62,174 nt of DNA, from assembly GCA_035549295.1 (NCBI GenBank), contig DASZRG010000026.1, forward strand, positions 1-62,174, given 5' to 3'. The position numbers and the translations under genes were made by a program. A model generated the notes under the pieces. That model saw nothing but the letters and a program-made list of their open reading frames with translations. It did no database searches and was not told where the DNA came from. This DNA is from Patescibacteria group bacterium (lineage in GTDB: Bacteria; Patescibacteriota; Microgenomatia; Levybacterales; GWA1-39-11). Positions 6,986 to 62,174 of this stretch are shown one piece after another (position 1 is the first letter of the stretch; every line of letters starts with the position of its first letter).

Positions 6986-6996
6986 GTTAACCGCTT

Positions 6997-8582: not shown

Positions 8583-11001
<2,419 letters not shown>

Positions 11002-31378: not shown

Positions 31379-31591
31379 CTATTGTTCTGACTTGGCCTGT
31401 ATGCCGAGGAGGTACATAACTGCTTCTTTTTTATATCTTCTATCCCCTCTTGAATTAATTCTTATTGCAGGGAGCTTTCCGCGTTTTCCCCATCTTTTGA
31501 TAGTAAGTGGAGAAACTCTGAGAATCTCTGCGACTTCACGTACCGTAAGTAGATCTGGAAGGTTGCTGATTGATATATTTTGCTGTGGCAT
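31379..31591 (-). CDS. Small excisionase-family (HTH_17) DNA-binding protein
   Basis: MPQQNISISNLPDLLTVREVAEILRVSPLTIKRWGKRGKLPAIRINSRGDRRY. Track ORF 31379-31660 has a longer, unlikely N-terminus. Confidence 0.7.
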   Translation of the reverse strand: MPQQNISISNLPDLLTVREVAEILRVSPLTIKRWGKRGKLPAIRINSRGDRRYKKEAVMYLLGIQAKSEQ

Positions 31592-32727: not shown

Positions 32728-33062
32728 CTACGAGATGAGATATATTTTGAATAATGAATAACGAATAAGGAATAATGAATAAATTTATTGAACTGCAATT
32801 TTGATCGTGATTTACCAAACTTTCTAACATATTAGATATTATAGATTAGATATTATAGAAATTACTTCTATGAGTTTAATTTGTTGTGGAAATAGTGGCA
32901 TATTTGTGTGAAAAATTGGGGATTATTTGGCGTTTAATATTTGACTATGAGATTTAGTATATGGTTATCAGTTCTCGGTTTTCAGTTATCAGAATCTGGT
33001 TTGTTAGTTTTCAGGTTGCCAGTTTTGCTTCGGTCAATTGTCAATTGTCAATTGTTCCAATC

Positions 33063-34070: not shown

Positions 34071-34525
34071 AAATTAAACAGATTTAATACGAGCAATTAG
34101 ATACTAGCTACTAGAAACTAGTTTCTAATTTCTAGTCTCTAGTTTCTCGAATAACATATCAGACTACAACTCAAATCTATCATTTTTTCCCAAAATGAAC
34201 GGGAGCAAGATTAATAAGTTATAGCATCGAGTAGGATCTGTTTCAATAGATCAAAGAGAATCAACGCTGAATAATTATTCAACGTAATAACCCAATACTA
34301 CCAATATACAAATAAACAAATCAATAAAAGACAAAATTATTTAATTCCTTAAATGATTTAATAATTGATTCCGATTTAATCGGGATTGATTGGGTTATTG
34401 GGTTATTTGTTTATTGGGTTATTAAAATGGCTTACCCTGCATCATTTACAGTATTTGTAGTATTTGTAGTATTGGCCCGCTGATAGTTTTCAGTCGGGAT
34501 AAATAGTATTATAATTGAGAGAGCT

Positions 34526-35707: not shown

Positions 35708-35730
35708 ATGGATATCCCAATCAAGAAGCA

Positions 35731-35850
35731 AGAATCATGAATAATGAATAAAGAATAATGAAGAATGAATAATGAAATTAGGAAAAACTCTTTAACCCGT
35801 AACTCTTTAACTCGCAAACCCGTTAACCCGTTAACCCGTTAACCCGTTAA
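35731..35850. repeat. Composite word element, inverted copy D
   Basis: GAATAATGAATAAAGAATAATGAAGAATGAATAATGAAATTAGGAAAAACTCTTTAACCCGTAACTCTTTAACTCGCAAACCCGTTAACCCGTTAACCCGTTAACCCGTTAA. This is the reverse complement of the arrangement seen at 39036-39150. Confidence 0.8.
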
Positions 35851-37825: not shown

Positions 37826-37872
37826 AATATTAGTATCAAGTATTTTGTAAGAAGTATCAAGAGGCGCGACGT

Positions 37873-37960
37873 AAAGGTATCAAAAGTATCAAGGGTATCA
37901 AAAGTATCAAATGCTAATTAGCCCGTGATACTCGTGGTACACTTGGTACCCGTGATACCC
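37873..37960 (-). repeat. 88-nt intercistronic GTATC-word hairpin element (copy between RR1 and the kinase)
   Basis: AAAGGTATCAAAAGTATCAAGGGTATCAAAAGTATCA - 12 nt - CCCGTGATACTCGTGGTACACTTGGTACCCGTGATACCC. Near-identical in both arms to 38342-38429, but the 12-nt loop differs. Confidence 0.85.
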
Positions 37961-37967
37961 TTTCGGC

Positions 37968-38336
37968 TTACTCTCCGATGATTCCCTTTATCTTCTCCGG
38001 GAGGTCGGTTGGGGAGACCTGGTATTTGAGGATATAGTCTGCTGCTCCACTATCAAGAGCGTCTTTTATGAGGTCGTTGCTTCCGAAGTTGGTAAGCATT
38101 GCCACAGGAATTGTCTTTAGATTGTCGTCGCTTTTTAGAGTTCGCAAGACATCATTACCTGACATATCAGGCATCATCTCATCAAGCAGGATCATATCAA
38201 ATTTCTGCTCGCGTGCCGCCTGGAGACCACTATTACCATCTGTTGCGATACGGACTTGATAACCAACAGCAGTCAAAGCAGTTTGGAAAACCGTTGCAAG
38301 CTGCTTATCATCATCCACTAATAGTACAGACTTCAT
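37968..38336 (-). CDS. Single-domain (CheY-like) response regulator
   Basis: LLVDDD, DMILLDEMMPDMSG and ADYILKY; 122 aa with no output domain. Confidence 0.9.
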   Translation of the reverse strand: MKSVLLVDDDKQLATVFQTALTAVGYQVRIATDGNSGLQAAREQKFDMILLDEMMPDMSGNDVLRTLKSDDNLKTIPVAMLTNFGSNDLIKDALDSGAADYILKYQVSPTDLPEKIKGIIGE

Positions 38337-38341
38337 TCTTA

Positions 38342-38429
38342 AAAGGTATCAAAAGTATCAAGGGTATCAAAAGTATCACAAGCAAATCTGCCCGTGATAC
38401 CCGTGGTACACTTGGTACCCGTGATACCC
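38342..38429 (-). repeat. 88-nt intercistronic GTATC-word hairpin element (copy between RR2 and RR1)
   Basis: Same length and arm sequence as 37873-37960. A third copy of the right arm lies at 15748-15786. Confidence 0.85.
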
Positions 38430-38438
38430 ATCTCGCGC

Positions 38439-38807
38439 TTACTCTCCTATTAGATCCTTGATCTTCATTGAGAGATCATCAGGTGTCATTTGGTATTTTA
38501 GAATATAGTCGTTTGCACCAGCGGCGATTGCTTCCTTGACTAGTTGATCATCATTAAAGTTGGTAAGGACTATTATAGGAAGCTTGGCGGTTGCTGGATC
38601 CTGGCGGAGGACTTTTATGATGCTATTTCCTGACATATCAGGCATCATTTCATCAACTATCATCACATCAAATTGGCTAGCCTTAACAAGTTCAAGTGCG
38701 TGCTTTCCGGAGTCTGAAACTTCTACTTCATAACCAACAGAAGTAAGTGCGGCCTTAAAAACATCGATTGCCTGCTGTTCGTCATCAACTACTAATACTC
38801 GCTTCAT
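38439..38807 (-). CDS. Single-domain (CheY-like) response regulator, paralogue of 37968-38336
   Basis: VLVVDDE, DVMIVDEMMPDMSG and NDYILKY; 122 aa. Confidence 0.9.
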   Translation of the reverse strand: MKRVLVVDDEQQAIDVFKAALTSVGYEVEVSDSGKHALELVKASQFDVMIVDEMMPDMSGNSIIKVLRQDPATAKLPIIVLTNFNDDQLVKEAIAAGANDYILKYQMTPDDLSMKIKDLIGE

Positions 38808-39035
38808 AGTTTCTAGAAACTAGAGACTAGAAAATAGATACTAGTTTCTAATATCTAGTATCTAATATCTATCTCAATATCTCATTCAAGGCTACCACTT
38901 AACAATTTTAAAAACAAGCCCCAAACACATAATTATTTACGTTTGGGGTGCAGTCCCGCATACACGCCCTTGCGACGCGTGGATGTAGACCACGGGAGCA
39001 AGTAAGTGATGTGCGGGGCAAGAGGTAATCAGAAT

Positions 39036-42108: not shown

Positions 42109-42957
42109 TCAGTTGTCAGTTGTTACTTTCGTCGTCGCACCATCGCTTATTATCTCTATCGTCCCGACTTCATCAGTTCGTTTATACGGCACATTATACT
42201 TTTTAAGAAGCGCGAGAACGCTAGGCTTCGGATGGTGGTAACGGTTGTGATACCCCACCGAAATGGGCACAAAACCGGGGTGAATTATATTGAAAGTCAG
42301 ATCATCCACTCCAGTATCTGACCCATGATGAGGAATTTTAAACAAGTCTAAATTATGAGGCACAGGAAGTGTATCAAGAATCTGATAGGTTATATCTCCC
42401 GTAAATAAACCCTTAAAGTTTTTATAAGTCAGAAGCTGTACAAGAGAATATGGATTGGTGTCAGTTGATGTGAAGCCTTTTTCGGGCCAAAGCGTAGTTA
42501 GCACGACACCATCTGAAACAACAAAGCGATCACCGGTCGTTATAAGTCTTGATGGTATCCCCTGCTCCTTGATGTCGCGAATAAGTGTCGCGAAAATGGC
42601 AGTATTATTTTTGTTATCGAGCGTCGAAGTATTGAACGAAAGCACCTTATAATTTTCTAGGACCTGAGTGAGTCCACCTATGTGGTCAGCATCCGGATGA
42701 GTCGCGAACATTTCTTCAATATCATGATCCCAAAAAGGCAAGTTCTTTGAAAGACATGCAACCATCTTTCCATTTTCAGGTCCTCCATCTATTACGATAT
42801 CGGCATTTTCAGGTGTTCTTATCAAAATACCATCCCCCTGCCCTACGTCACACACAAAAATATGTAATTTCTTATCAGACAAATACTGTGACTGATAGTA
42901 AAAAACGAGAATTAAGGCTAAAAAACAGAAGAAAATTATGATAAAAACTCGTTTCAT
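42109..42957 (-). CDS. comEC: ComEC C-terminal metallo-beta-lactamase-fold module encoded as a separate ORF with its own N-terminal TM helix
   Basis: VCDVGQGDGILI, HPDADHIGGL and HHGS. Confidence 0.8.
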   Translation of the reverse strand: MKRVFIIIFFCFLALILVFYYQSQYLSDKKLHIFVCDVGQGDGILIRTPENADIVIDGGPENGKMVACLSKNLPFWDHDIEEMFATHPDADHIGGLTQVLENYKVLSFNTSTLDNKNNTAIFATLIRDIKEQGIPSRLITTGDRFVVSDGVVLTTLWPEKGFTSTDTNPYSLVQLLTYKNFKGLFTGDITYQILDTLPVPHNLDLFKIPHHGSDTGVDDLTFNIIHPGFVPISVGYHNRYHHPKPSVLALLKKYNVPYKRTDEVGTIEIISDGATTKVTTDN

Positions 42958-43026
42958 TAAGTATTCTAGCGGACTTCCCGTATGCTAATTTATGCAAATT
43001 CTTACTGCGAATTGATGCATATGATA

Positions 43027-44016
43027 TCATTTGGATATAGTTGTTGGGTTTTTTGAAAACTTTAGCCAAATTGCCGCAACTATTAGATAGTAACCGGCGA
43101 CCAGAGTCCACGGAACTGTCTTCAATTCTACCATCTGCGAGTGTTTTGCAAAGTAGTCAATCACCAGAAAGAAGTATGAAAGAAGAGGTAGACAGAGATA
43201 CACGAGAGGTGCAGCAAGAACTGGAATTGGCGAAAGTATTGCCGCGATTCCACCCAATACCATAAGCGGCGGAACAGTCCACAGAACTAAAAAATTGGTG
43301 ACAATAGATATGACCGAATAACTTCCGAAGAATAAAAGCAAAATAGGAGTCGTCGCAATTTGGGCCGAGATAGTTGTCCTGAAATCTTCGAAAAAATCAC
43401 TCTTCATCACTCTTTTCATGATGGGGTCAAAGAGTATTATTCCCGCAGTTGCGGTAAAAGAAAGAATAAAGGAAATCGAAGTAATCACACTTGGGTCATA
43501 AAAGATCATAACAAAGGCTGTGAAAAGGAGCGCAATAAGTGAAGTATTTTGCCGTCCGACTATTCCAGCGCCCAGCGCAACAGTCCCCATGATAGCAGCT
43601 CGCATAATAGATGCTTGAAAATCAGCGAGTGCTGCATAGAAAAATATAACAAGAATTGTTGCCACCAAAGCGTGCTGTCGCCTCAAAAATAGGATCAAAA
43701 ATCCTAGCACAAAGGACGTTGCCATGCTAATGTTCATACCTGATGCTGCGATGATATGGAGCACTCCGGTCTTTTGGAAATTTTTCATCGCAGTCTTATC
43801 TAGAGTTTTATCCCCAAATACTATTCCCATTAGAAGATCTGCATCCTGCCCGCCCAAATACTCACCATAAACCTGCCTGATATGAGACTTCATCTCCGTG
43901 AAAATGCTAGGAGCGGGCTTTTCACTCGTGACTATTCCCGCAGACTGAGCCGAGGGATGATAGAAGTACAGACGAAGCGAGAGAAGAAGCAGGAGGATGA
44001 GAAAGAAGCGTATCAT
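43027..44016 (-). CDS. comEC: ComEC/Rec2 competence (DNA channel) membrane domain
   Basis: LLMGIVFGDKTLDKTAMKNFQKTGVLHIIAASGMNISM; polytopic membrane protein of 329 aa. Confidence 0.85.
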   Translation of the reverse strand: MIRFFLILLLLLSLRLYFYHPSAQSAGIVTSEKPAPSIFTEMKSHIRQVYGEYLGGQDADLLMGIVFGDKTLDKTAMKNFQKTGVLHIIAASGMNISMATSFVLGFLILFLRRQHALVATILVIFFYAALADFQASIMRAAIMGTVALGAGIVGRQNTSLIALLFTAFVMIFYDPSVITSISFILSFTATAGIILFDPIMKRVMKSDFFEDFRTTISAQIATTPILLLFFGSYSVISIVTNFLVLWTVPPLMVLGGIAAILSPIPVLAAPLVYLCLPLLSYFFLVIDYFAKHSQMVELKTVPWTLVAGYYLIVAAIWLKFSKNPTTISK

Positions 44017-44018
44017 AG

Positions 44019-44129
44019 TTAGTATTAAGTATTATGTAGGAAGTATTAAGCAAGTTAACGAGTTAACGAGTTAAAGTGTTAACGAGTTTTGCATTCTCAT
44101 TATTCATTCTTCATTATTCTTTATTCATT
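44019..44129. repeat. Composite word element, copy C
   Basis: TAGTATTAAGTATTATGTAGGAAGTATTAAGCAAGTTAACGAGTTAACGAGTTAAAGTGTTAACGAGTTTTGCATTCTCATTATTCATTCTTCATTATTCTTTATTCATT. Confidence 0.8.
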
Positions 44130-44788
44130 TATAAACTGATAAGGTCTCGTATCTTATCCATCGTCTTTTGCGTGATGGATTTTTTGCTGACGAGTTCGTC
44201 GAGCGACGAATATGGGCGGTTGTTGATGATCTTTGCAGCACTTACTGGGCCAATTGCAGGAAGACCCTCAAGCTGCTCTTCGCTTGCACTATTAACCGAA
44301 ACTAATCCTCCTGCATTTTCCGGATTAATATTGCCCGTGATACTTGTGGTACCCTTGATACCCGTGATACTCATGTCCACAGTACCCGTGATACCTTTAA
44401 CTTCTTCACCCTTTGCTGGAATATAAACCTTCTGGCCGTCGTATACTTTGGCCGCAAGGTTCACTGCATTGCGGTCTGCCACGGCTCCCATACCACCAGC
44501 AGCAATTAGCGCATCCTGAACTCGCGCATCACCAGATAGCTCATAAACCCCTGGCTTGAGAACTTGGCCCTCAACATCTACCTTTATTTTGCCACTTGGC
44601 GTAACTGATGTAGCTACTCCAGCCACCTGCTCACCTCTCTCAAATTTGACTGTAGCTGTCTTCTGCCCAGCTATCTGCATCACTCCAATTGCCAAAAATA
44701 TTAATCCAAGAACGAGAAGTCCTATAAAAAGCACATTACCTGAGACAAAACGTGAGAGTCTCTCCTGAAAACTACCTGAATCTTCCAT
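44129..44788 (-). CDS. comEA: ComEA DNA receptor (TM, SLBB-like domain, repeat-derived linker, helix-hairpin-helix)
   Basis: C-terminal VNSASEEQLEGLPAIGPVSAAKIINNRPYSSLDEL, with an N-terminal TM helix. Confidence 0.85.
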   Translation of the reverse strand: MEDSGSFQERLSRFVSGNVLFIGLLVLGLIFLAIGVMQIAGQKTATVKFERGEQVAGVATSVTPSGKIKVDVEGQVLKPGVYELSGDARVQDALIAAGGMGAVADRNAVNLAAKVYDGQKVYIPAKGEEVKGITGTVDMSITGIKGTTSITGNINPENAGGLVSVNSASEEQLEGLPAIGPVSAAKIINNRPYSSLDELVSKKSITQKTMDKIRDLISL

Positions 44789-50816: not shown

Positions 50817-51049
50817 GAATTCTGATTCATATCAGAACCAAACCAACCCTGAATCAAGTTCAGGATAAACAAATAAGCGCACGACACCATTTAGCAATTA
50901 GCGTTTAGCGTTTAGATAAAATTCTAATGGCTAACTGCCAACCCCCAAGCGCCAACAGCAAGCTCCAGAACCTCCCTAATACCCAATACCAGATACTTGA
51001 TACCCTCGGTACTGGATACTGGATACTCAATACTATATACTTAATTACG

Positions 51050-51652
51050 ATGAAGCTCTTCACCCAATCTCTTTCAATTTTCTTAGCACTCGCCATAGTA
51101 CTAGTGATAACCAACACTCCACTCGACGACTATATTACTGTTATCTTAGGCATACTTATAATCTTTTCCATCATTTACGGAATTATCAAAAGGCGCGGCA
51201 AAAAAGATGAGGAGATATTTTCTGGATCTGCTCTTGAGGTATCGGGTGTTTCAATGATCCTGCTTCTTGCTATCTTTCTCACAGGGGGCCTTACTTCAAA
51301 CCTATTTTTCTTGCTCTACTTTCTCATGTTTGGGCTTGTTTTTCTGTTTGAGCCTGCAACGGTATTTGTACTCTTGATAGGACTTCTAGTAGTCTTCTTC
51401 ACATCTATATCTGATGGCGATCTATTCTCCAATCTGATAAGACTCGGCTCACTCGTCTTTCTATCCCCCATCTCATACTTCTTTGGCCGTGAGTTCCAAC
51501 GTCGCGAGAAACTTGCAGATGAAATCAATGATAAAACAGGCCAGATCATCGAAGACGCCGAGACCCTCAAATCCCATACAAAGAACTCTGATGCTATTGA
51601 TGAAATTGAAGATATCGAGAAGAAAGCCAAAGAGCTGAGGAATAAAGAATAA
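51050..51652 (+). CDS. Polytopic membrane protein with an acidic coiled-coil C-terminus
   Basis: Track ORF 50927-51652 begins inside word-repeat DNA. The ATG at 51050 (MKLFTQSLSIFLALAIVLV) is preceded by TATACT 8 nt upstream. Confidence 0.6.
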   Translation: MKLFTQSLSIFLALAIVLVITNTPLDDYITVILGILIIFSIIYGIIKRRGKKDEEIFSGSALEVSGVSMILLLAIFLTGGLTSNLFFLLYFLMFGLVFLFEPATVFVLLIGLLVVFFTSISDGDLFSNLIRLGSLVFLSPISYFFGREFQRREKLADEINDKTGQIIEDAETLKSHTKNSDAIDEIEDIEKKAKELRNKE

Positions 51653-51658
51653 CGAAGA

Positions 51659-52045
51659 ATGAATAATGATCAAAACGCTAAAATAAGATCATTTACTGAT
51701 TTAAACGCTTGGAAAGAGGGTCACAAACTAGTCCTACTTATATACAAAATAACAGCCAATTTTCCAAAGTCAGAAACTTATTCAATAGTAGATCAAATGA
51801 GACGCGCAGCAGCTTCGATTACGGCTAACCTTGCAGAAGGCTTTACTAGACAATACTATAGAGAGAAGATTCAATTCTATTATTTATCAAAAGGCTCTCT
51901 AGTTGAGCTTAAAAACTTTCTCTTAATATCAAAAGATGTCAGTTATTTAACTGAAATTGAATTTAAACAACTAATGGATCAGGCAGATTCTGTTGACCAA
52001 TTAATTCAAGGATTTATTCGAAAAAGCAGAACTTTCCTAAAATGA
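51659..52045 (+). CDS. Four-helix-bundle protein (23S rRNA intervening-sequence protein / Avd-like family)
   Basis: FTDLNAWKEGHKLVLLIYKITANFPKSETYSIVDQMRRAAASITANLAEGF. The stop overlaps the next ATG (ATGA). Confidence 0.8.
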   Translation: MNNDQNAKIRSFTDLNAWKEGHKLVLLIYKITANFPKSETYSIVDQMRRAAASITANLAEGFTRQYYREKIQFYYLSKGSLVELKNFLLISKDVSYLTEIEFKQLMDQADSVDQLIQGFIRKSRTFLK

Positions 52046-52779
52046 AATATATAGCTTCACTCGTCTTATTCATTATTCTTTATTCTTTATTCATTATTCA
52101 TGATGCTCATGCTCAGACGATGAGTAACGGATCATATATACTAGAGCAAGGGAATCTCAATTCCTTTGCAGGCAAAGCTACCGGATCAAACAACAAAGTC
52201 ACTTTCTCCTCGGGTACAACCGCCCAAGGAGTCTACACAGGCACAAATTATAAAATAAGGCAGGGCTTTCAGTATACTCAGTCGGCTGCCGGTAGCGGTT
52301 CATTTACATTTACAATATCTAGCGGGTCAATAAGTTTTGGCACAATTAACCCAGGAGAACCTATCACCCGAAATAGTACTCTGCTAATCTCGAGCCCGGA
52401 TTCAGGCTATCAAGTAATAGCATCTGAAGATCACAGCATGAGAAACTCAAATAGAGTTGATATTCCAGATACCAAATGCGATGATGGCAATTGCTCTGAG
52501 ACTCAATCCTCACTATGGACTTCCCCATTAACATTCGGATTTGGGTACAGATGTGACAATACAGCTTCGTCTCCTTGCGTTTCAGACTTTTTAACCTATG
52601 ATTCTTACCGTCAATTCGCGAATAAAGAGGCTTCAGAAAGTGCGCAAACAATCATGTCGAGTGATAATCCGGTAACAAATAATCAGTCAACAATAACTTA
52701 TAAAGTAAATATTTCGGGCTCGCAGGCCCCAGGAACATATCAAAATAGCATCTTGTATATCGCCTCCCCCTCCCTTTAG
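52042..52779 (+). CDS. Secreted protein, possibly WxL-like surface protein
   Basis: Signal peptide MKYIASLVLFIILYSLFIIHDAHA and C-terminal GTYQNSILYIASPSL. The family assignment is tentative. Confidence 0.6.
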   Translation: MKYIASLVLFIILYSLFIIHDAHAQTMSNGSYILEQGNLNSFAGKATGSNNKVTFSSGTTAQGVYTGTNYKIRQGFQYTQSAAGSGSFTFTISSGSISFGTINPGEPITRNSTLLISSPDSGYQVIASEDHSMRNSNRVDIPDTKCDDGNCSETQSSLWTSPLTFGFGYRCDNTASSPCVSDFLTYDSYRQFANKEASESAQTIMSSDNPVTNNQSTITYKVNISGSQAPGTYQNSILYIASPSL

Positions 52780-53205
52780 CTTCCCAATTAACCAATTATC
52801 AAATTCCAATTCACCAAACCAAACATCAATTTTAAATTGTTTAAACATTAAACATTTCTTAATTGGTTTGAAAATTGATTAATTGATCAATTGAAAATTT
52901 ATTTGGCCTTGGGTACTGTACAATAACTTACTCAAAAACCTATCACTTGAACTACTCTTTTGCCATTATCAGATTTTAGTCTAGGCCAAATATTTTGATC
53001 AGTTTGATATAGTCTATTTTTTCCCCGCAAAACATCATTTTTAGGTCTAAAATGACCTATTTTCTAGAAATTTTCTAATTATTATTACCGCACTAGCCTC
53101 AGTTTTTACCGAAAAACTATATGACTTTTTTGATCAAATAAATCATTTATGCCAACACAACGGCATTTATACCGCCGTTATATTTGCTATGAAAATTTAC
53201 CGCAG

Positions 53206-53220
53206 TGGTATAATCAAATT
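53206..53220 (+). promoter_or_regulatory. Extended -10 promoter TGgTATAAT placed 6 nt before the ATG (predicted leaderless)
   Basis: TATAAT at 53209-53214 and ATG at 53221. Confidence 0.55.
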
Positions 53221-54237
53221 ATGAAATTATCACCCAGGCATAGAGCTCTAAAATTATTATTTTCTTTATTCATTATTCTTTATTCATTATTCTTTATTCC
53301 TATAGGGGTTAATGCCGATAGCAACTCCTTCTCCCTCTCCATCTCACCTTCGATAACTGAAATAGTTGCAACTCCTCCTGCAAGCGTTGAGTCAAGAATA
53401 AGTATAGAGAACAAGTCAGGAAAAGAAGAAGACTTAAACATCAGCTTCATGCCCTTTAAAATGTCAAAGGCTTCAAATGGGAACATTGAATATATAAACG
53501 GGCAAGATAGCAACTTCGAACAAATAAGGTCAAAAATAAGTATTTACGACGGAAATAATGCCATCACGAGTGTCAAGCTCAATCCTTATGAGGAAAAGGA
53601 TTTAAAGCTAAAAATAAATATAGATGACTCGGCAGGTAAGAATGACTATTACTTCTCAGTTGTATTTGCAGCGAGCGATAATACTCTCAAGCCAAATTCT
53701 TCACAAACCTCAGGTGGGATAGCAACAAACATAATATTAACCACAAATGAAGCTGAAAAACCAAGCGGGCATATAGCTGACTTCTCGACTCCATTCTTTG
53801 AGAATCGAGGACCAGTTCCATTTACTTTACTTCTTGTCAATGATGGAGATCACTATATGATCCCTCGCGGACGAATAAGCCTTAAGGATATGTTTGGCCG
53901 TGATCTTGAAAGAATCGATATAAAGCCTGAATATATACTGGGTCATGGACAGCGATATTTAACTCAATACATTGATGAAAAAAACAATTCAACAATTAAA
54001 ACAATAAATCAATATAAGAATAATTCTGGGCACCCCATACTTATCTGGCCTCAAACGTTTCTTTTTGGAATATACAATGCAACGGCAGTTATAAAACTCT
54101 CAGACAGTGGCCCAACATTTACTACCACTACATCTTTTATTTCTATGCCTATATATCTTATTTTGCCAATTACTATATTCTCTGCAATCCTTCTGGGGAT
54201 CTATATCAAAGTGAAACAAAAGTCGGAAAAAAAATAG
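53221..54237 (+). CDS. Cell-surface protein with signal peptide and C-terminal TM anchor (architecture resembles DUF916/DUF3324)
   Basis: MKLSPRHRALKLLFSLFIILYSLFFIPIGVNA, with C-terminus IYLILPITIFSAILLGIYIKVKQKSEKK. Track ORF 53149-54237 starts upstream of the promoter. Confidence 0.65.
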   Translation: MKLSPRHRALKLLFSLFIILYSLFFIPIGVNADSNSFSLSISPSITEIVATPPASVESRISIENKSGKEEDLNISFMPFKMSKASNGNIEYINGQDSNFEQIRSKISIYDGNNAITSVKLNPYEEKDLKLKINIDDSAGKNDYYFSVVFAASDNTLKPNSSQTSGGIATNIILTTNEAEKPSGHIADFSTPFFENRGPVPFTLLLVNDGDHYMIPRGRISLKDMFGRDLERIDIKPEYILGHGQRYLTQYIDEKNNSTIKTINQYKNNSGHPILIWPQTFLFGIYNATAVIKLSDSGPTFTTTTSFISMPIYLILPITIFSAILLGIYIKVKQKSEKK

Positions 54238-54853
54238 AATCAGCATATATATTTGGCTTAAAGCTAGAGTTTTAAGCCATTTTTATCCCCGCAAAATACT
54301 ATATACAGCTAAATTTACCCGTGCCTAATTTATTGAGAGAATATTTAAGTTTTTCTACTAATCTCTTACGGCTTGGAGTAAATATTTTAAAAAGCCACTC
54401 TTCTGGCGCACAAAAAGAATAAAAAAGCGGTGTTTAAGAAAAAGTAAGGAGTTGGTAATAAAAGGGTTATTTAAATTTATACTGTTAAATTAAGCCAAAA
54501 AGGCCATCAAAACACTCTATCAATTGACCACATCGATTGATAATTGGATTATCAACCACTCTCAAAAGAAACTACTGTAAGAATACCTAACAAGTTATAG
54601 TACTTAAAGATTGATAGAGCAATAAGAGCGTGAAACAATAGTGAAAAAGTACCCTATCAAAATACATCAACCACAAAAAAAGCTGAATTCAGACATAATG
54701 ATATACTTTGATATAAATTTTGGTCAACGTGAAACATATTTTTACGGTAAAAAAGTCATTTCACGGTAATAACTGAACTTTTCATAGTCCCTATTTCTCC
54801 AAATAAATAGATCATTATATATCAAATAGCCTTGACTATTAAACTCTAGGTTA

Positions 54854-54881
54854 TTGACAATAAATATAGTGATAGGATAAT
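54854..54881 (+). promoter_or_regulatory. Sigma-70-like promoter TTGACA-N16-GATAAT upstream of the giant gene at 55027
   Basis: TTGACA at 54854-54859 and GATAAT at 54876-54881, about 145 nt before the ATG. Confidence 0.45.
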
Positions 54882-55026
54882 CTTTATGAGATCGGTAAAT
54901 AATCAGTATAATATGTATAATCTTGAGGCTAGTATAAATTCAACAAATATTACGGTAATCTTCATCGTGAAAAACTATTCTATGGCTGGGTTTCACAAAA
55001 TAGGAAATATATTAACACTTTAAAAA

Positions 55027-58000
55027 ATGAGCAATATAGGACTCCAATTCAAAAGTTATCTCCTTGAGAAAAAAAAAGTTAGTCATATCACTCTCAAGAA
55101 TTATTCATCAGATATAAGCCGATTCCTCAACTGGTATTCACAATACTTTGGCGTAGAATTCAGGCCCGACAATTTTGACTCAAAACTAATTAAGCGCTTT
55201 GTTGATGAAATGAAAAATGGAGGCGATCCTATCGCACGGCCATCCGCTCGCTCACTCGAGAGATACATCTCCACTCTCAAAAGGTTTGCCGACTTTATGA
55301 TTGCGACAAACCTAATCGTTGAAAATCCTTTTGCAAGCGATGAAAACCGTTCGCAACAGGCAACAGATGAGTGGAAAATGCGCGGATTCAAAGACTTTTT
55401 ATATGTAAATGGCGCATCTCGAGCTACCATGAAAAACTATATAGTCGATATTAACGCGTTCACTACCTGGATCAGCCAGAGCTTTGACTTTTCAGATATT
55501 TCAGATCCCGCCGAGCTCCTCACTAATTCTGTTCTTGAGCAATATAAAGTACGTCTAAAAGAAGTCTTTAATCTGTCTCAAGCGAGCATAGACCGCAAGA
55601 TTTCATCGATTAGAAAGTACTTTAAATATGCTGGCCGAGAGACTGAACTACCTGTAAAAGAGTATCAGAAGTTTATCAACACTGCTAAAGCTGAAGTTAT
55701 TGTGCCTGAACCAATTGCTACAACTGCCGAAAACACGCTAACCATGGATAGTCTGCAGCTTGAGCCGGACCCTGTTATGACTAGCTACTCGCCTATTCCG
55801 CCTTTTAGACTTGTTCAAAAGCTACTTCTTCCCTATCTGCTTCTTGAGGAAATGATCTCTCACAAAATAGCACTTGGAGTACGCCGCAGACACCTTGAAA
55901 CATATATCAAAGCAGGCGAGCAACTGCCAAAACCCGATGTTAAAAATACTAACACTTTACTAAATAGACTTAAAAATAACCGCCCCATGTGGTACAAAAG
56001 GTATCACAATATGGCATTTACCAATTATTTACACCTCGCTATCCTTATTATATATGCGACTATTTTGAGCATGATCATGTATAGAAATATGTTTGACAAC
56101 AAAAACGGCGTCCAAGCATCAACTATTGCACCTCAGCGCGTATTATCCTTTCAGGGTCGCCTAACAGATAACAACGACAATCCTATCACCTCGACAACAA
56201 GTGTAAGATTTCAGATATACAATGACGCAAGCGCATCGGGCTCTGCCCTTCTCTGGCAGGAGGTCGATTCTGTAACACCCGATAACAACGGTATTTTCTC
56301 AGTTCTTCTTGGCTCAGGAAGCAATTGCAACGGCCAACCCCTCACATCGCAAACAACGCCATGCGCAATTCCCCAAGATCTCTTTGGAACTCATGACAAT
56401 TTGTATTTGGGTATTGCGGTCCAGACAACTGCCGAGCTGACCCCTCGCCAAAAGATCGCAACTGTTGCCTATGCTGCCAACAGTGAGTCTGTACAAGGAA
56501 TGCTTCCCACAACAGACTCAAACGCCGGGCAGACAAATGTAATTCTTGCACTAGACTCATCTGGCAATCTAACGATAGGCGGGTCAGCTAATCCTACTTT
56601 TTCCGCGTCCGGCGGACAATTCAAGCTTTCTGGACAACCAATAGTTCTTGCAACCAACCCTGGCTCAAACGGCGATATTCAGCTAATACCTGACGGAACT
56701 GGAAAAATAGATGCAGAAGCTCCACTCGTAAACAATGGCACATCAGGAATAGTTACCCCAGGTGGCGTTGAGGTCGATGACCGGTTTGGAGTAATTGCAA
56801 CAGAGTCATCTGTCGCTGCCTTTATCGTTAATAACAATACAACAGGCGGCGATATATTTGCTGCATCATCAAGCGGCACTACTCGCTTCGTACTACAAAA
56901 CACTGGTGATATAAGCATTCAACCAGGAGCCTCAATTGATACATTAAGTATAGGTTCGATATCTATTGGTGGAACTAATGCTAGCACTATTTCGCTTGGC
57001 CGAATCGGTCAAGGAATAAGATTTCCAGGTTTCTCGGTACAAAACGGTGTTTTATATGATGAATATGGGACTGGCAATCTGCAGCAGGTAACAACATTTA
57101 CTCCTAACCAATGTCTTTTGTCAGGACCATCAAATCCATATTGGGGAGACTGTTCGCTATCCGGAAGCAGCGCTTTCTGGAATCAGGTTAATGGTGCACT
57201 ATCCCCCAACAATTCGACCGTCGACTTTCTCGTTGGCGGACAGTCAAGCGCCTCTGCTAAGTTCTCGGTAACGAACGTGAACTCTGGCACGCCAACTGCT
57301 AGTATCTCGGGTAATCTGATTGTCATGCCTAATGTTTCAAACTCAAGTGGTGGAAATGTAGGAATAGGTGTGGCTTCGCCAACTCATACGCTTGAACTCT
57401 GGAACGACGATGCTGCCAAATCTCTTACAACAACTTGGACTGTCACATCTGACGAGCGAACCAAGACTAACATCCAGTCATTTAACGACGGACTTGCCGT
57501 CATAGATCAAATAGATCCAGTCACTTTTACATATAATGGTCTCGGAGGGACTATAGCAGGTGCATCTGGGATCGGAGTAATCGCACAAGACATACAAAAA
57601 GTTGCTCCATATACAGTTGGTACATTTCAAGCAAAACTCAACCCAAATGATACAAATGAGACAACTCTACTCGATTTCAATCCCCACGCTCTTTTCTTCA
57701 TAACTATTAACGCGATTAAAGAGCTTGATGCAAAAATTGGCGCGCTTTCCCAGAATGTCGTGACTCAAGCAATTTCTGCCGGACAAGTCTCAGCGCAAAG
57801 CCTTAACGTCGCAACGAATTCAATTACTATTGCTGGTGTTAACCTAAAAGACTATATTGCAGAAGTCGTAGCAGAACAGCTCGGAACGAGTCAACTAGTT
57901 TCACCTCTTGCATCGACCAACCAAGTTAAGACAAACGTCATCTCACCACTTGCTGATGACTCGCATATTTCAATTGGACTTGATAAATCAAAAGTAACTA

Positions 58001-59067
58001 TCCATGCAACTGAAGCATCAGGTTCTGCCGTTGTCGCATCGATAGATAATTCAGGCAACGCCACATTCTCTGGAAGTCTCACTACTGCATCTGCTTCAAT
58101 CTCAGGAAACCTAACAGCAGCTGGCGATGCAACCGTTGCAGGCACATTGTATGCAAACAATATACAGGCGAGCTCAATAGAGGGACTTGATGATAGGATT
58201 AAATCTATCACGCAGGCAAACGACGGGTTCAACAATGTATCAAGACAAGCTATTTCAAACTACCATACAGAAATTGCATCCGAATCCGCTGGTCTTATCG
58301 CAAGCATCAACAACCAAGACGGAATTGTCGTCGGGCATTTCATTGATATTCAGAATCTATCTGCCGACTTTGGCACCTTTAGACAAGGCCTAACTGCACT
58401 CGGCCCATCTACATTTGCCGAGGCAAGTGTCTTGGGGACTTTGAGCGTTGGCAACAATATGACTTTTGACCAAAACTCTATCAACACTTACGGCACCGAT
58501 CTTGCAATACAACCTCTGAAGCAAGGTGCGGTTGACTTCCTGGCTGGTGCCGTCCGAATCGAGACCGATGGAACACTCAAAGTTTCAGGCAATGCATACT
58601 TTGCCTCAAACGTCACGGTTGGCGGCAATTTAAATACAAACGTCATCTCTCCTCTATCAAATAGCAAGCCGCTAACAATTACAAACTCAAAACCATCCGA
58701 TGGTGAAACAGGACTTGAAACCGATGACCACACATTACTTAACGTACAAGGTTCAGCCTCGGTATCAGGATCTCTTACTCTTGGCAAACTCAATTTCCCC
58801 CTCGTTGCACCAGCCTATGCAGTGTCTGATGTAGAGGTTGTCGCAACGGGATCTGCCGGCATGACAACTCTCAAGCAATACAGAACCGAAGTAACTATAG
58901 ATAACCCTATCGTAACAGATCATTCTCTTATATACATCTCGCCAGTCGGGCCATCAAACGACCAGTCGCTCTTCCTCATGCGCCAAGTCCCCGGAAAGTC
59001 ATTTACAGTTGGCGTCAATTCCCAAGCAATAAGCGACATCAATTTCAATTGGATAATCGTAAATTAG
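55027..59067 (+). CDS. Giant single-pass membrane fibre protein: two N-terminal tyrosine-recombinase core-binding (SAM-like) domains, TM helix, tail-fibre-like repeats, internal peptidase-S74 chaperone module
   Basis: FKSYLLEKKKVSHITLKNYSSDISRFLNWY...RSLERYISTLKRFADFM...NPF and FKDFLYVNGASRATMKNYIVDINAFTTW...IDRKISSIRKYFKY are core-binding-domain-like. TM helix AFTNYLHLAILIIYATILSMIMY at nt 56014-56082. VDFLVGGQSSASAKFSVTNVNSGTPTASISG matches the repeat unit of the gene at 1-3586. TSDERTKTNIQ...VTFTYN...GVIAQDIQKVAPY...INAIKELDAKIGAL is S74-like (nt 57440-57750). Confidence 0.85.
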   Translation: MSNIGLQFKSYLLEKKKVSHITLKNYSSDISRFLNWYSQYFGVEFRPDNFDSKLIKRFVDEMKNGGDPIARPSARSLERYISTLKRFADFMIATNLIVENPFASDENRSQQATDEWKMRGFKDFLYVNGASRATMKNYIVDINAFTTWISQSFDFSDISDPAELLTNSVLEQYKVRLKEVFNLSQASIDRKISSIRKYFKYAGRETELPVKEYQKFINTAKAEVIVPEPIATTAENTLTMDSLQLEPDPVMTSYSPIPPFRLVQKLLLPYLLLEEMISHKIALGVRRRHLETYIKAGEQLPKPDVKNTNTLLNRLKNNRPMWYKRYHNMAFTNYLHLAILIIYATILSMIMYRNMFDNKNGVQASTIAPQRVLSFQGRLTDNNDNPITSTTSVRFQIYNDASASGSALLWQEVDSVTPDNNGIFSVLLGSGSNCNGQPLTSQTTPCAIPQDLFGTHDNLYLGIAVQTTAELTPRQKIATVAYAANSESVQGMLPTTDSNAGQTNVILALDSSGNLTIGGSANPTFSASGGQFKLSGQPIVLATNPGSNGDIQLIPDGTGKIDAEAPLVNNGTSGIVTPGGVEVDDRFGVIATESSVAAFIVNNNTTGGDIFAASSSGTTRFVLQNTGDISIQPGASIDTLSIGSISIGGTNASTISLGRIGQGIRFPGFSVQNGVLYDEYGTGNLQQVTTFTPNQCLLSGPSNPYWGDCSLSGSSAFWNQVNGALSPNNSTVDFLVGGQSSASAKFSVTNVNSGTPTASISGNLIVMPNVSNSSGGNVGIGVASPTHTLELWNDDAAKSLTTTWTVTSDERTKTNIQSFNDGLAVIDQIDPVTFTYNGLGGTIAGASGIGVIAQDIQKVAPYTVGTFQAKLNPNDTNETTLLDFNPHALFFITINAIKELDAKIGALSQNVVTQAISAGQVSAQSLNVATNSITIAGVNLKDYIAEVVAEQLGTSQLVSPLASTNQVKTNVISPLADDSHISIGLDKSKVTIHATEASGSAVVASIDNSGNATFSGSLTTASASISGNLTAAGDATVAGTLYANNIQASSIEGLDDRIKSITQANDGFNNVSRQAISNYHTEIASESAGLIASINNQDGIVVGHFIDIQNLSADFGTFRQGLTALGPSTFAEASVLGTLSVGNNMTFDQNSINTYGTDLAIQPLKQGAVDFLAGAVRIETDGTLKVSGNAYFASNVTVGGNLNTNVISPLSNSKPLTITNSKPSDGETGLETDDHTLLNVQGSASVSGSLTLGKLNFPLVAPAYAVSDVEVVATGSAGMTTLKQYRTEVTIDNPIVTDHSLIYISPVGPSNDQSLFLMRQVPGKSFTVGVNSQAISDINFNWIIVN

Positions 59068-59164: not shown

Positions 59165-59908
59165 ATGGAGGGAAATGTCAACCAGGCGGCCACGCAGCCT
59201 CCACAAGAGAATGTACCGCCAGGGATACCCACGAGTAACCCTCCGCAAGAAAGTGATATGGCTACCAAATCTTTAAGGCTACAAAAACTCGAGATAGCAG
59301 GCTTGGTCACGATCATTCTAGTTCTTGGTGGCTCCATACTTTTCTTTGATCAAATAAAAAGTCTTGTTACGAAGCAAAACAAACCAATCCAAAAGACAGC
59401 TACAATCGTACCTGATCAACACACAACTGCATCTTCAGATCCTACCCCAACAACGGAGCCCGATACAGGACTGGTATGCGCAGGGTATAAAAGACTTGAT
59501 GAAGCACTTGCCCATATTGATACCGCATGTGCACTTGACCTCTCGAACCAGAACTTGAGCGAACTACCAAAGGATGTCTTGAAGCTAAAAAATCTGACCT
59601 CGATCAATCTAGATAATAATAAATTTACTGCATTTCCAGATGATTTAACAACTTTTACGAAGCTACAAAGAATAGATATGAAAAATAACCAGCTCACCAA
59701 TATTCCAAACTCTATTACCAAACTTTCTTCTTTGCAAATTATTGATTTTTCAAACAATAAATTGGCCACCCTTCCGAATATAAGTAGCATGTTATATTTA
59801 CAAACAATAGATGTTTCGCAGAACAATTTTTCTGCTCAAGAAAAAGAGTCAATAAACAAAATGTTCGATCAACGTAATTCTCCTCAAAAGACTGATATTA
59901 GACTTTAA
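59165..59908 (+). CDS. Leucine-rich-repeat protein with an N-terminal TM anchor
   Basis: LDLSNQNLSELPKDVLKLKNLTSINLDNNKFTAFPDDLTTFTKLQRIDMKNNQLTNIPNSITKLSSLQIIDFSNNKLATLP. Confidence 0.8.
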   Translation: MEGNVNQAATQPPQENVPPGIPTSNPPQESDMATKSLRLQKLEIAGLVTIILVLGGSILFFDQIKSLVTKQNKPIQKTATIVPDQHTTASSDPTPTTEPDTGLVCAGYKRLDEALAHIDTACALDLSNQNLSELPKDVLKLKNLTSINLDNNKFTAFPDDLTTFTKLQRIDMKNNQLTNIPNSITKLSSLQIIDFSNNKLATLPNISSMLYLQTIDVSQNNFSAQEKESINKMFDQRNSPQKTDIRL

Positions 59909-59927: not shown

Positions 59928-62174
59928 TTATTGACAAGTCTGTCCCCATGCAATATTAACTGGGATTGTACAGGCTGAATTCGAATAGTAACCCATATTG
60001 TAAGATACAGTACTCCCGCAAGATGCCGTTGTAGCCGATGTTCCGGAACAGATTGGCCATGGGGGGCTTGAATTCAACGTGCAAACACCATTATTAATTA
60101 CATATTGAGCTGCGTTTGAAGTAGCCGTGCACGCAGAGTATGCAGGGTATGGATAGCCATAAGTCGTTACACCATCGCAGTCCCAATCCCCAGAATCCCA
60201 TGTATTTCCTGCAAGATCATTTCCCTTAATGCCCTGTCCGCGTACGCCGCCGTGACCACCTGGATAGCCAGGTTGCGCATAATACTCTCCGTCAAAACAG
60301 TCAAGCGTTGAACTTTGTGCGGCTAGCCATCCTGTTGGCAAAGATCCGTTAGTACAGACTGATTGTTGAGCAAGCGTGTATGAGTCGCCATCGGTATCCG
60401 GATATCCCGTCTTCGTAACCCACTTTGAATTGTCGTTTGGAGCACAGTCACTTCCACCAAGTGCGGAAGTCGTTGCATCGGTATAAAGACTTGTGTTATT
60501 TCCTGGAGTTACATAAAAGGCAGCAAGAAAACCTGCTCCAACACCACCATTTGTCGATGTTGCATTTTTATTTCCCGAGGCGCCCGCCGCCGCCTGAAGT
60601 CCCATCGCCGCTGCAAGGGTTTGGTTGGAATTAGAATAATCCTCTTTCTCAGAAAGGGGCGATGTATATGACTGGAAGTTAGAAGTTATGTTTACACCCC
60701 ATAGACCTAGTAAAGTTTCATTGCTATTTGAAGTTGTTATGCCTGTCAGTGTTTTAGTACTAGTTCCTGTTGGAAAAAGACTACTAAGACCTGTGTCGTA
60801 TGCGATTGTACCTCCGCTTGCATTATCAAGCGTGATAATAGTGCCGCTCGCGAGCCCTCCTACTGCTTCGCTCCATTTCCATTGATAGTATGAAGGCTCA
60901 GTCCCAGATGATGTTATAGGCTTGTAGTATGAATAACAGACGTCTCCCGCAACGTTATTTGCAGCTCTACCACCTATTTGCACCCATGCAGATGGTGTCG
61001 CAGTCATTGATAGATTGAATGGTGAACTCGAGTCCACTGCACACAGGAGGGCAACAAGCATATCGCCATTACTAATAAGCGAGGGTTTAACAATCGACAA
61101 ATTATTTCCCGATCCTGTATTCGGATTCAGAGGCGCAACTTGCGCAATTGTATTCTTGGAAGCTCCAGAATAGTAATTGCGAATAAGAGGCTTCAAAGCA
61201 AACATAATTGACCCTCCATATGCTGTGCCAGATGTAAGAGTTGATGTCTGGATACCTGTCACACCAGGTGTAGTCTGAGTCATATCTGAAACTTCAAGAT
61301 ATAAATTAGCACCTGTGGAGGTTGATCCACCTTGCTTTCTAATAGTCCATCCAGAAGCAGGTGCAGGCACGCCAAAAGTCTTTGACGCAGTTGTCGTCAG
61401 ACCGGCAACGTGGAACACAACTGCATTGGCTGTCGCAGTCGTAACAGAGGGACCAGCAAATGCTGCCACAGGAACAGCGTTAGTACCATTTGCTGTTCCA
61501 CCACCTGATGTATCAATTGGTGAACTTGTATCAATCCCCGTGTATCTAAGTATAGTTACAGCTTCGTTTGTATCAGCTTGAAGCTGATAATATGATGGCT
61601 CGTTATTGGCGATTTTATAGTATGCAGAAGTAACGGTCTGAGTATTTGCGCCGCCGCCGCCATTATTTGTGATACTTTTGATCAGGGTATAGCCATATGT
61701 TGTAGGAGTAGATACTTGAAAAGATGGAACACCACCGGCTTTTGAAATAACAGTTACCATAAGTAGTAGATCACCATTTGCTGTATTATTTGGAGTATTT
61801 ACTAATACTCCTCCTCCACCAGAAGTACCGGTCGCAACCCCGGAGGTCGATGTTGATTTATAAGTAATGGTTTGAACAAGAGGTGTAGCAGCGCCAACGC
61901 ACATAGAAGCTGGTGAACCAGTATAATATCTATCTTGATCCGCATCTGCTGCTAGATTCGAAATGGATTGATAAATGCTCGAATTAGTATCGTCACAGTC
62001 AGTGTTATTAAGTACTCCTCCCACATAACAGCCCTGGACCCCCGCTCCATATCCATCACCATCAAGGTCCTGGTAAGAATTTGGCGTACAAGCTGTTGTG
62101 GCAAAAGAGAGAACGCTTCCATAAGCTGTACCGGCTGCATTTTGGGCAACAGAACAAAAGTAGTAAGTGGTACC
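59928..62174 (-). CDS. Large secreted Cys-rich protein with MopE-like DxDGDGY / DCDD motifs and duplicated beta-rich modules; N-terminus lies beyond the right window edge
   Basis: Track ORF 59928-62024 starts at an internal GTG. Manual translation shows the frame stays open to nt 62174 (...YQDLDGDGYGAGVQGCYVGGVLNNTDCDDTN...). Confidence 0.75.
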   Translation of the reverse strand, partial: GTTYYFCSVAQNAAGTAYGSVLSFATTACTPNSYQDLDGDGYGAGVQGCYVGGVLNNTDCDDTNSSIYQSISNLAADADQDRYYTGSPASMCVGAATPLVQTITYKSTSTSGVATGTSGGGGVLVNTPNNTANGDLLLMVTVISKAGGVPSFQVSTPTTYGYTLIKSITNNGGGGANTQTVTSAYYKIANNEPSYYQLQADTNEAVTILRYTGIDTSSPIDTSGGGTANGTNAVPVAAFAGPSVTTATANAVVFHVAGLTTTASKTFGVPAPASGWTIRKQGGSTSTGANLYLEVSDMTQTTPGVTGIQTSTLTSGTAYGGSIMFALKPLIRNYYSGASKNTIAQVAPLNPNTGSGNNLSIVKPSLISNGDMLVALLCAVDSSSPFNLSMTATPSAWVQIGGRAANNVAGDVCYSYYKPITSSGTEPSYYQWKWSEAVGGLASGTIITLDNASGGTIAYDTGLSSLFPTGTSTKTLTGITTSNSNETLLGLWGVNITSNFQSYTSPLSEKEDYSNSNQTLAAAMGLQAAAGASGNKNATSTNGGVGAGFLAAFYVTPGNNTSLYTDATTSALGGSDCAPNDNSKWVTKTGYPDTDGDSYTLAQQSVCTNGSLPTGWLAAQSSTLDCFDGEYYAQPGYPGGHGGVRGQGIKGNDLAGNTWDSGDWDCDGVTTYGYPYPAYSACTATSNAAQYVINNGVCTLNSSPPWPICSGTSATTASCGSTVSYNMGYYSNSACTIPVNIAWGQTCQ

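Follow-up and report, generated by a model that had tools for sequence, protein, structure and literature searches.

A chromosomal surface-fibre gene of Microgenomatia with recombinase-type core-binding domains and an internal S74 module

How does a single reading frame come to join the DNA-binding end of an integrase to a tail-fibre-like repeat protein, and is its product a phage relic or a working part of the cell that encodes it? The question is raised by a giant gene (55027..59067, + strand) in contig DASZRG010000026.1 of assembly GCA_035549295.1, a stretch of 62,174 nucleotides (nt), hereafter the window, from a Levybacteria-like bacterium of the candidate phyla radiation (CPR; Patescibacteria). 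CPR bacteria are thought to live attached to other cells, and the molecules by which they make or sense contact are mostly unknown; to our knowledge, no member of their class Microgenomatia has been cultured. The gene encodes 1346 amino acids (aa) in an uninterrupted frame, the stop codon being included in its coordinates. It is a chromosomal surface-fibre gene of this bacterium and not part of a prophage, and its architecture is a variant of the trimeric adhesive fibre, widespread in one CPR class, with two peculiarities: recombinase core-binding domains occur as a pair on what is predicted to be its cytoplasmic side, and the probable autocleavage site is internal, with a conserved module coming after it. 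Taken as a whole, the account given below is the one towards which we lean, if only slightly.

Inner domains, membrane span and outer fibre

An earlier note, made from the letters of the DNA, had read the first 210 residues as two tandem core-binding (SAM-like) domains of XerC/XerD-type tyrosine recombinases with no catalytic domain behind them, and the profile searches bore this out. Phage_int_SAM_1 (PF02899) matched with E=2e-20 over two stretches, best at aa 7-93 (domain 1, 55045..55305), and Phage_int_SAM_4 (PF13495) with E=2.7e-7 at aa 121-201 (domain 2, 55387..55629), both above their curated Pfam cut-offs; these and all other features of the gene lie on the + strand. In an AlphaFold model of aa 1-394 made with 56 aligned relatives (predicted local distance difference test score, pLDDT, 82.5), two four-helix bundles (aa 3-93 and 118-205) are followed by a long helix (258-295) and a further helix (330-357). 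The best matches of this model in the PDB, as ranked by Foldseek, were XerA, XerD and the integron integrase VchIntIA, in each case their core-binding parts only. Of the 295 positions of the NCBIfam XerC and XerD models, the match took in 2-93 and no more (75 bits; cut-off 335), and no Pfam match to the integrase catalytic domain (PF00589, with its R-K-H-R-H/W-Y active site) was obtained in the giant protein. Since this domain is lacking, the protein is, judged by its domains, no recombinase and would be unable to recombine DNA. The names 'site-specific integrase' and 'recombinase XerD', carried by the database records P0005, P0009, P0011, P0024, P0030, P0031 and others, are therefore misannotations.

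Both domains carry the motifs TxKNYxxD and RxxSSLRK, which, with their basic residues, show 89-100% conservation at corresponding positions. Conserved residues of domain 1 are T22, K24, N25, Y26, D29, R79 and R85, and those at the equivalent positions of domain 2 are K136, N137, Y138, D141, R190, K191 and R196; the basic positions correspond as K24/K136, R79/R190 and residues 85-86/R196-K197. Because Lys and Arg are conserved at equivalent places and each domain has a net charge of about +4, DNA binding is plausible, and we see an even chance that both domains may still be capable of it. Among the database matches of the core-binding domain is chain 14 (401 aa) of PDB entry 9i5v, labelled 'Ribosome-associated translation inhibitor RaiA', with E=1.2e-4 for the single sequence and 3.7e-9 for the family profile, which suggests that either the label or the protein of that chain deserves a look.

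Behind the second bundle and a conserved YSxFPPxRLxQK motif, aa 258-295 (55798..55911) form the long amphipathic helix of the model (pLDDT about 85). High scores in a few homologues made it a candidate for a second transmembrane (TM) helix, which was rejected since every best window is charged: the best 19-residue window contains one to five charged residues in every homologue, together with conserved Asp/Glu and Pro, and has a typical Kyte-Doolittle value of 0.3-1.8. The only true span is aa 330-357 (56014..56097; hydrophobic core 334-352), identified from hydropathy, the model and flanking charge, which is uncharged in 51 of the 51 aligned homologues listed and reaches 1.5-2.6 in its best 19-residue window; the single hydrophobic helix of the earlier note was thus confirmed. 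On its N-terminal side is a basic juxtamembrane motif, RPMWYKRYH (aa 319-327; 55981..56007), in which W322, Y323 and Y326 are invariant or nearly so, and RPxWYKxYH is present ahead of the TM helix in almost every homologue. No N-terminal signal peptide was found, the N-terminus being hydrophilic and lying 329 residues ahead of the only hydrophobic helix. The net charge is +5.3 in the 30 aa preceding the helix versus +1.9 in those following it, and the cytoplasmic region is basic overall. This distribution supports a predicted orientation with the N-terminus inside and the fibre outside, which the reading of the earlier note needed. By this prediction the product is a single-pass membrane protein with about 330 residues in the cytoplasm and about 990 outside.

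When the outer part was compared by segment-wise BLAST, the family proved to be conserved at both ends (from the N-terminus to about aa 640, and from about aa 900 to 1346) and variable in the middle. The conserved extracellular base and stalk (aa 367-640; 56125..56946) starts with VLSFQGRLTD, as part of a PPRxLSFQGRLTD motif directly after the TM helix, and its identity across close homologues is 44-64%. Ten residues past the helix, aa 367-434 matched the NCBIfam model of the N-terminal domain of mosaic adhesive trimer (MAT) proteins, NF053851, with E=9.7e-10 and 38.5 bits, under the cut-off of 60, and the family profile matched the Bdellovibrio MAT protein Bd2133 (PDB 8ond_A) with E=1.2e-4. 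A single-sequence search of the fibre part against PDB sequences returned nothing, and matches were obtained only through the family profile and fold comparison. The central variable cassette (aa 641-807; 56947..57447) consists of fibre or beta-helix sequence leading into the S74 module, shows the mosaic pattern of the family and falls within the region (aa 562-911) matched by PHROG tail-fibre families. On the common base, the cassettes of relatives contain S74, Peptidase_G2, LVIVD propeller, pectate-lyase, BNR, Laminin_G or Hint domains.

The S74 intramolecular chaperone and self-cleavage module occupies aa 808-917 (57448..57777). Peptidase_S74 (PF13884) matched aa 808-864 with E=4.5e-13 and 49.7 bits against a cut-off of 22, over model positions 1-57 of 58. 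The motif TSDERTK holds Ser808 (nt 57448-57450) and Lys813 (nt 57463-57465), so that the SDxxxK dyad, as defined for S74 modules (PMC3742440, PMC10769870), is intact. In a Foldseek search with a model of aa 780-1346, the MyRF ICA domain (7dc3) ranked best, with E=3e-5 and a TM-score of 0.68 normalised to the target, and the chaperones 3gw6 (endosialidase), 3gud (GA-1) and 4uw8 (T5) were also matched. The earlier note had placed the signature some 540 residues before the C-terminus, and indeed 538 residues follow Ser808; the module is internal and does not form the C-terminal 140-155 or so residues. The Ser and the Lys at +5 are retained in 22 of 22 aligned S74-bearing relatives, as SDxRxK or SSxRFK, and in relatives the serine is 392-547 aa away from the C-terminus, though their total length ranges from 1134 to 2254 aa. 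Because of this retained dyad and constant distance, the module is likely active.

What follows the cleavage site is a family-conserved C-terminal module (aa 918-1346; 57778..59064), found in 47 of 97 homologues irrespective of their total length and measuring about 430-550 aa across the family. It closes with a beta-sandwich (aa ~1260-1346; 58804-59064) that ends in FNWxIVN, and the last 87 or so residues have a pLDDT of about 90. In the fold search, structures of tailspikes and of R-pyocin fibres were matched as well, over a short length and with a low root-mean-square deviation; the output does not state where these alignments fall, which is probably on the terminal beta-sandwich. Peptidase_G2 is, like S74, an autocleaving intramolecular chaperone, and one or the other always stands directly before the conserved C-terminal module, as in P0017 (Peptidase_G2 at 1500-1577, C-terminal module at 1744-2160). 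One of them was present in 33 of the 47 proteins with the C-terminal module versus 1 of the 50 without it. An internal self-cleaving module followed by a conserved module of 430-550 aa departs from the textbook C-terminal intramolecular chaperone. According to the earlier note, the distal part of the fibre could be released by autoproteolysis, in a ToxR-like link between surface or host contact and DNA. The data do not bear this out in that form: the piece after the cleavage site is the family-conserved one and the piece before it the variable one, and by this pattern the shed piece resembles an assembly module more than it does a sensing tip. Nor is there any sign of signal-dependent cleavage. 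S74 modules act as folding chaperones, and their cleavage comes after trimer formation. Moreover, as the module is predicted to be extracellular and is 450 residues away from the helix, a cut at Ser808 could not free the DNA-binding end.

The promoter region and its tandem repeat element

Upstream of the giant gene, a promoter-like region (54843..54881, + strand) consists of ACTCTAGG (54843-54850), TTGACA (54854-54859), a spacer of 16 nt and GATAAT (54876-54881), and scores 11 of 12 promoter positions. It is followed, on the same strand, by three tandem 9-bp units resembling a -10 box, AAATAATCA, GTATAATAT and GTATAATCT (54897-54923, 27 bp), which are trailed by TGAGGCTAG (54924-54932) at the end of the element (54897..54932). 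Provided that the TTGACA/GATAAT promoter is the one used, the tandem element lies at about +9 to +44, and it is a candidate operator to which the core-binding domains of the giant protein might bind. The whole arrangement, at 54843-54932 of the window, was found at the equivalent place in about 115 related loci (L001-L085, L209-L288). The Levybacteria unit is GTATAATCN with a 9-nt period, two to three tandem units being followed by YGRGGCTA, and the -10 box between TTGACA and the units is a weak one. ACTCTAGG-N3-TTGACA, then TAnnCT at 17-18 nt, recurs in 60 orthologous loci listed, and the 60 loci listed with the common layout have one to three exact units spaced by exactly 9 nt. The core GTATAATC (reverse complement GATTATAC) was present in 66 of 82 upstream regions versus at most 25 in shuffles.

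In the loci examined, the element stands almost only ahead of the giant gene. The tandem pattern occurred 77 times in the 972 kb of loci and window together, 76 of them upstream of this gene. A 16-base pattern is too common in the 596-Gb genome collection to be informative; the 21-base version had 82 exact matches there, of which 37 are placed upstream of an orthologue, 50-650 nt away and in the same orientation, four more belong to loci already known for the family, and the remainder are microsatellites in unrelated phyla. A wider regulon sharing the motif was considered and rejected, all identifiable 21-base matches in Patescibacteria being at the orthologous gene; this holds for exact matching, by which degenerate sites are missed. 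The element is conserved between orthologues of only 30-40% protein identity, far beyond what that identity would lead one to expect. A structured 5' leader RNA or riboswitch was likewise rejected, since the region folds less well than shuffled sequences (z=+1.59; 195 of 200 shuffles equal or exceed it in stability), and a search of Rfam gave no match at E<=1 for the upstream element. These observations point to an element that would act at the DNA level and be dedicated to the giant gene.

The sequence and the period of the unit vary by clade. In Collierbacteria the unit is GTCTAATNNN with a 10-nt period, and its GTCTAAT has a C in place of the A at the second base of the TATAAT hexamer. The second base is usually the most conserved position of a -10 box, and since it is replaced, the Collierbacteria unit is unlikely to be only a sigma-70 -10 box. 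Woesebacteria loci have mixed units, and in Woesebacteria-type loci the trailing heptamer GAGGCTA is present as its reverse complement.

Other short repeats occur elsewhere in the window. Arrays of a different 9-nt unit, GTATCAARR, are dispersed over it (3904-3962, 15699-15791, 21385-21427, 28687-28739, 31034-31083, 37866-37969, 38333-38438 and 44325-44377); they are mostly intergenic and nearly absent from related genomes (3 of 85 loci), and two of them contain inverted pairs, which would fold into long hairpins (37873-37960 and 38342-38429). Two families of short intergenic tandem repeats with a 7-nt period, of the CTAGWWW and GAATAAT types, were found at 31318-31387, 34078-34161 and 38801-38884, and also at 4678-4718, 32748-32788, 35724-35792 and 51639-51679.

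Family, chromosomal locus and neighbouring genes

Across Microgenomatia (Levy-, Collier-, Woese- and Shapirobacteria and others), no fewer than 300 independent assemblies contain this fusion. Its collinear architecture recurs in about 100 database proteins, nearly all of them from Patescibacteria and many annotated as 'site-specific integrase' or 'XerD'. An exhaustive search by HMMER with aa 1-394 yielded 154 clusters (50% identity) at E<=1e-30 and 301 at E<=1e-10, with lengths of up to 6048 aa. Among species-representative genomes, there were 144 relatives of the Levybacteria type and 177 of the Collier-, Woese-, Shapiro-, Beckwith- and Gottesmanbacteria type, and a few genomes have two copies of the giant gene. 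This recurrence, in the database proteins, in the 154 clusters and in the 144 and 177 species genomes, rules out an assembly join at about nt 56000; with no frameshift there, profile hits to both families and an N-terminus predicted inside, the architecture read by the earlier note stood.

In some Shapirobacteria-type relatives the core-binding domain is a separate gene of 159-164 aa that abuts or overlaps the fibre gene in another frame (2535-3014 and 3001-9288 in locus L086; 2501-2995 and 3001-9972 in L087), which is either a natural split or a frameshift. In both loci the repeat element is placed upstream of the small gene. The core-binding module is functionally tied to the fibre, and covalent attachment is not required.

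The gene lies in a syntenic locus in which comEC, comEA, one further gene and leuS are on one strand, and a membrane protein, a secreted protein of 245 aa, a 362-aa protein resembling WxL-interacting proteins and then the giant gene are on the opposite one. In the window, the three genes upstream (50927..54237, + strand) encode a multi-pass membrane protein (50927-51652), the secreted protein (52042-52779), and the 362-aa protein with a C-terminal anchor (53149-54237). When 85 orthologous loci were searched by tblastn, the secreted protein was found upstream on the same strand in 56 and the 362-aa protein in 66. The latter has a weak match to the peptidoglycan-binding WxLIP_PGBD in the window and a stronger one in L087. 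This three-gene cluster resembles the WxL surface-protein loci of Firmicutes. No integrase catalytic-domain partner was found among the neighbouring genes of nine loci, no other phage genes were seen among the neighbouring genes scanned, and the GC content has no clear break at the giant gene.

Within the surface cluster, at 51659-52045, and likewise in seven related loci, there is a gene for a four-helix bundle similar to the 23S-rRNA-intervening-sequence protein and bAvd. The idea of a diversity-generating retroelement aimed at the fibre, to which this neighbour gave rise, was dropped, no pair of template and variable repeats being present in the window. ComEC is represented by two open reading frames at 42109-44016 (- strand), with the Competence domain at 43027-44016 and the metallo-beta-lactamase domain at 42109-42957, and ComEA adjoins at 44129-44788. 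Downstream of the giant gene are a membrane-anchored leucine-rich-repeat protein (59165-59908) and a Cys- and Gly/Thr-rich protein of 698 aa with no family match (59928-62024, - strand); relatives usually have a TPR protein there instead. Elsewhere in the window, two adjacent large proteins, of 910 aa (16193-18925) and 789 aa (19004-21373), end in dockerin type I domains, and one of them has a PAN domain.

Proposed mechanism, rival explanations and known systems

The giant protein is probably a trimeric surface fibre for contact with a host cell or a surface, whose variable middle cassette would be the working head. The S74 module would help the trimer to fold and would then probably cut at Ser808, leaving aa 1-807 in the membrane and shedding aa 808-1346. 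The chances seem even that the shed fragment would be mainly an assembly module, starting trimerisation from the C-terminus. Tentatively, and at a distinctly lower level of confidence, the most likely target of the core-binding domains would be the tandem 9-bp array in the initially transcribed region of their own gene, by which the protein might feed back on its own transcription. A trimer would offer six core-binding domains to the two- to three-unit array, and the DNA of the gene would be near the membrane during coupled transcription, translation and insertion, which makes such an interaction possible. Carried to its full extent, this would give a transmembrane autoregulatory device in which the six domains of the trimer sit on the tandem units downstream of the promoter and either couple the state of the fibre to transcription or tether the chromosome at the site of host contact, which we hold to be rather unlikely. 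The ToxR-like signalling proposed in the earlier note is still unproven, now with a concrete candidate DNA target.

A number of points weigh against this account. DNA binding, cleavage and the trimeric state are all inferred, and the TM topology is based on hydropathy and the positive-inside rule only. The co-occurrence of S74 or Peptidase_G2 with the C-terminal module is inflated, since partial proteins lack both. With a separate small gene for the core-binding domain in some lineages, covalent tethering is not obligatory. Co-variation of the core-binding motifs with the repeat unit across clades was sought and none was visible, the motifs being alike in clades whose units differ. In Woesebacteria-type loci the last unit is only 8-20 nt from the ATG. 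In L112 (Levybacteria Baikal-deep-G183) the array, with three exact units (GATTATACA x3, 4221-4247), is inverted between the TTGACA box and the gene start; it is the only such case seen and may be due to an inversion or rearrangement. Finally, the element could equally be purely a promoter feature, made up of tandem -10 boxes, sigma-dependent pause sites or the true -10.

The last point leads to a reading, possible but doubtful, in which the fibre is as described and the core-binding domains no longer bind DNA, their role being that of an anchor in the cytoplasm or of a module for oligomerisation or protein docking, while the repeats are a specialised promoter or pause element of a highly expressed surface protein. 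RodZ, whose cytoplasmic helix-turn-helix reportedly binds MreB rather than DNA, would be a comparable case. The lack of co-variation fits this reading, as do the resemblance of the units to perfect -10 boxes and a distance to the ATG that, in several clades, suits a promoter with a short leader or none; as the split versions show, the module is able to act as a separate protein, and a fibre held by only three TM helices might plausibly be helped by a bulky cytoplasmic stop. A mere spacer, however, would not need basic residues at the canonical core-binding positions that are 89-100% conserved in both domains, and a -10 box does not account well for the Collierbacteria GTCTAAT, without the usual A at the second position, nor for GAGGCTA being reverse-complemented in other clades and one array being inverted, for which a protein-binding site is the better fit.

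The remaining explanations are much less probable. The protein has the three ingredients of MYRF, a DNA-binding-type domain, a membrane span and an autoproteolytic S74 module, and the MyRF ICA domain is its best structural match in the PDB, so that contact or load might trigger proteolysis and free a DNA-binding N-terminus, in the manner of MYRF or by RsgI/Notch-type regulated intramembrane proteolysis after an autoproteolytic first cut. We judge this improbable: the S74 module is across the membrane and 450 residues from the helix, the 450 or so extracellular residues remaining after cleavage are far too many for a site-2 protease without a further cut, the cluster has no conserved protease gene, and cleavage in characterised S74 modules follows trimer folding and is not known to respond to a signal. 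Still more improbable is a link to competence, by which the inner domains would act on incoming DNA, or hold the chromosome at the place where the fibre touches a host cell. Natural competence is found in some cultivated CPR bacteria, and in the window, as in no fewer than six related loci, comEC and comEA are only a few genes distant; however, the com genes are on the opposite strand beyond leuS and look like general conserved gene order, core-binding domains bind double-stranded DNA and ComEC delivers single strands, and nothing else connects the fibre gene with them. That the gene is a remnant of a prophage or mobile element, or a chimera of an integrase fragment and a tail-fibre gene, would be suggested by the integrase-type and tail-fibre-type profile hits in one gene and by relatives annotated as site-specific integrase. 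It is scarcely credible and we regard it as ruled out, since the fusion is collinear through the junction in hundreds of independent assemblies and the locus is syntenic, flanked by housekeeping genes, with no other phage genes in the scanned neighbours and no clear GC break.

As a conserved, chromosomally fixed fibre with an exchangeable head, the protein is a prime candidate for host recognition. We know of no other fibre of this kind with a DNA-binding-type module on its cytoplasmic end, and no description of the architecture was found in word-matching literature searches, which were not exhaustive. The gene-specific promoter repeat array is the most useful new lead and makes the idea of a DNA target testable; if the autoregulatory reading were true, a recombinase DNA-binding domain would have been put to a new use, and the membrane-bound proteins that bind DNA would gain a new class. 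Apart from this, the combination of integrase, tail-fibre and S74 profile hits with a XerD annotation could lead tools for prophage detection astray in CPR genomes, as well as surveys of mobile elements or lysogeny there.

Among known systems, the MAT fibres of Bdellovibrio bacteriovorus share exchangeable cassettes, there as tips, and, in a subgroup, an S74 module with SDxxxK; their long trimeric stalk and the beta-rich base right after their membrane-targeting segment, a signal peptide (PMC10769870), probably have counterparts here as well. They differ in having a cleavable signal peptide and no cytoplasmic part, where the giant protein has 330 cytoplasmic residues and a TM anchor; in a terminal S74 module that releases about 140 aa, compared with 538 residues after the cleavage serine here; and in a variable part that is the C-terminal tip and not the middle. 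Because it has no signal peptide and its S74 module is internal, the protein is not a canonical MAT fibre. With phage tailspikes and fibres (endosialidase of K1F, 3gw6; T5 L-shaped fibre, 4uw8; GA-1 neck appendage, 3gud; and, for Peptidase_G2, the phi29 gp12 type) it shares the S74 fold with its Ser/Lys dyad, the triple-beta-helix-like sequence before it and a terminal beta-sandwich resembling tailspike ends. Unlike these, it is cellular, chromosomal and membrane-anchored, and its post-cleavage fragment, longer by a factor of three to four, is a conserved module in its own right.

The precedent for an internal S74 position is the myelin regulatory factor MYRF, likewise a type II membrane protein with an N-terminal DNA-binding-type domain, an internal S74/ICA module with Ser and Lys(+5) and one TM helix (PMC3742440, PMC8326128). 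In MYRF the order is DNA-binding domain, ICA and TM helix, the first two on the cytoplasmic side, and cleavage frees a transcription factor (PMC3742440, PMC8326128), whereas here the core-binding domains (7-201) are followed by the TM helix (330-357) and then S74 (808-917), and a cut made outside cannot free the inner domains; the DNA-binding folds, of the Ndt80 type and the core-binding type, differ as well. Since its S74 module is on the wrong side of the membrane, the giant protein is not MYRF-like in mechanism. Regulators of the ToxR/CadC type have a cytoplasmic N-terminal DNA-binding domain, an OmpR-type winged helix, then one TM helix and a small periplasmic sensor as outer domain. The likeness to them is one of predicted topology only, with a recombinase-derived fold in place of the winged helix and a 990-aa fibre as the outer part; ToxR is said to bind tandem direct repeats upstream of ctxAB, to which the tandem units here are a parallel. 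A precedent for the proposed DNA target is FliZ, which has a core-binding-like domain and no catalytic domain and recognises DNA resembling the -10 promoter element (PMC3367168), but it is a small soluble enterobacterial protein with one such domain, and its similarity to the giant protein falls short of significance (NCBIfam E=0.041). With the core-binding domain of the tyrosine recombinases XerC and XerD, by contrast, the homology of the two N-terminal domains is clear, and where those enzymes continue into a catalytic domain, the giant protein continues into a TM helix and a fibre.

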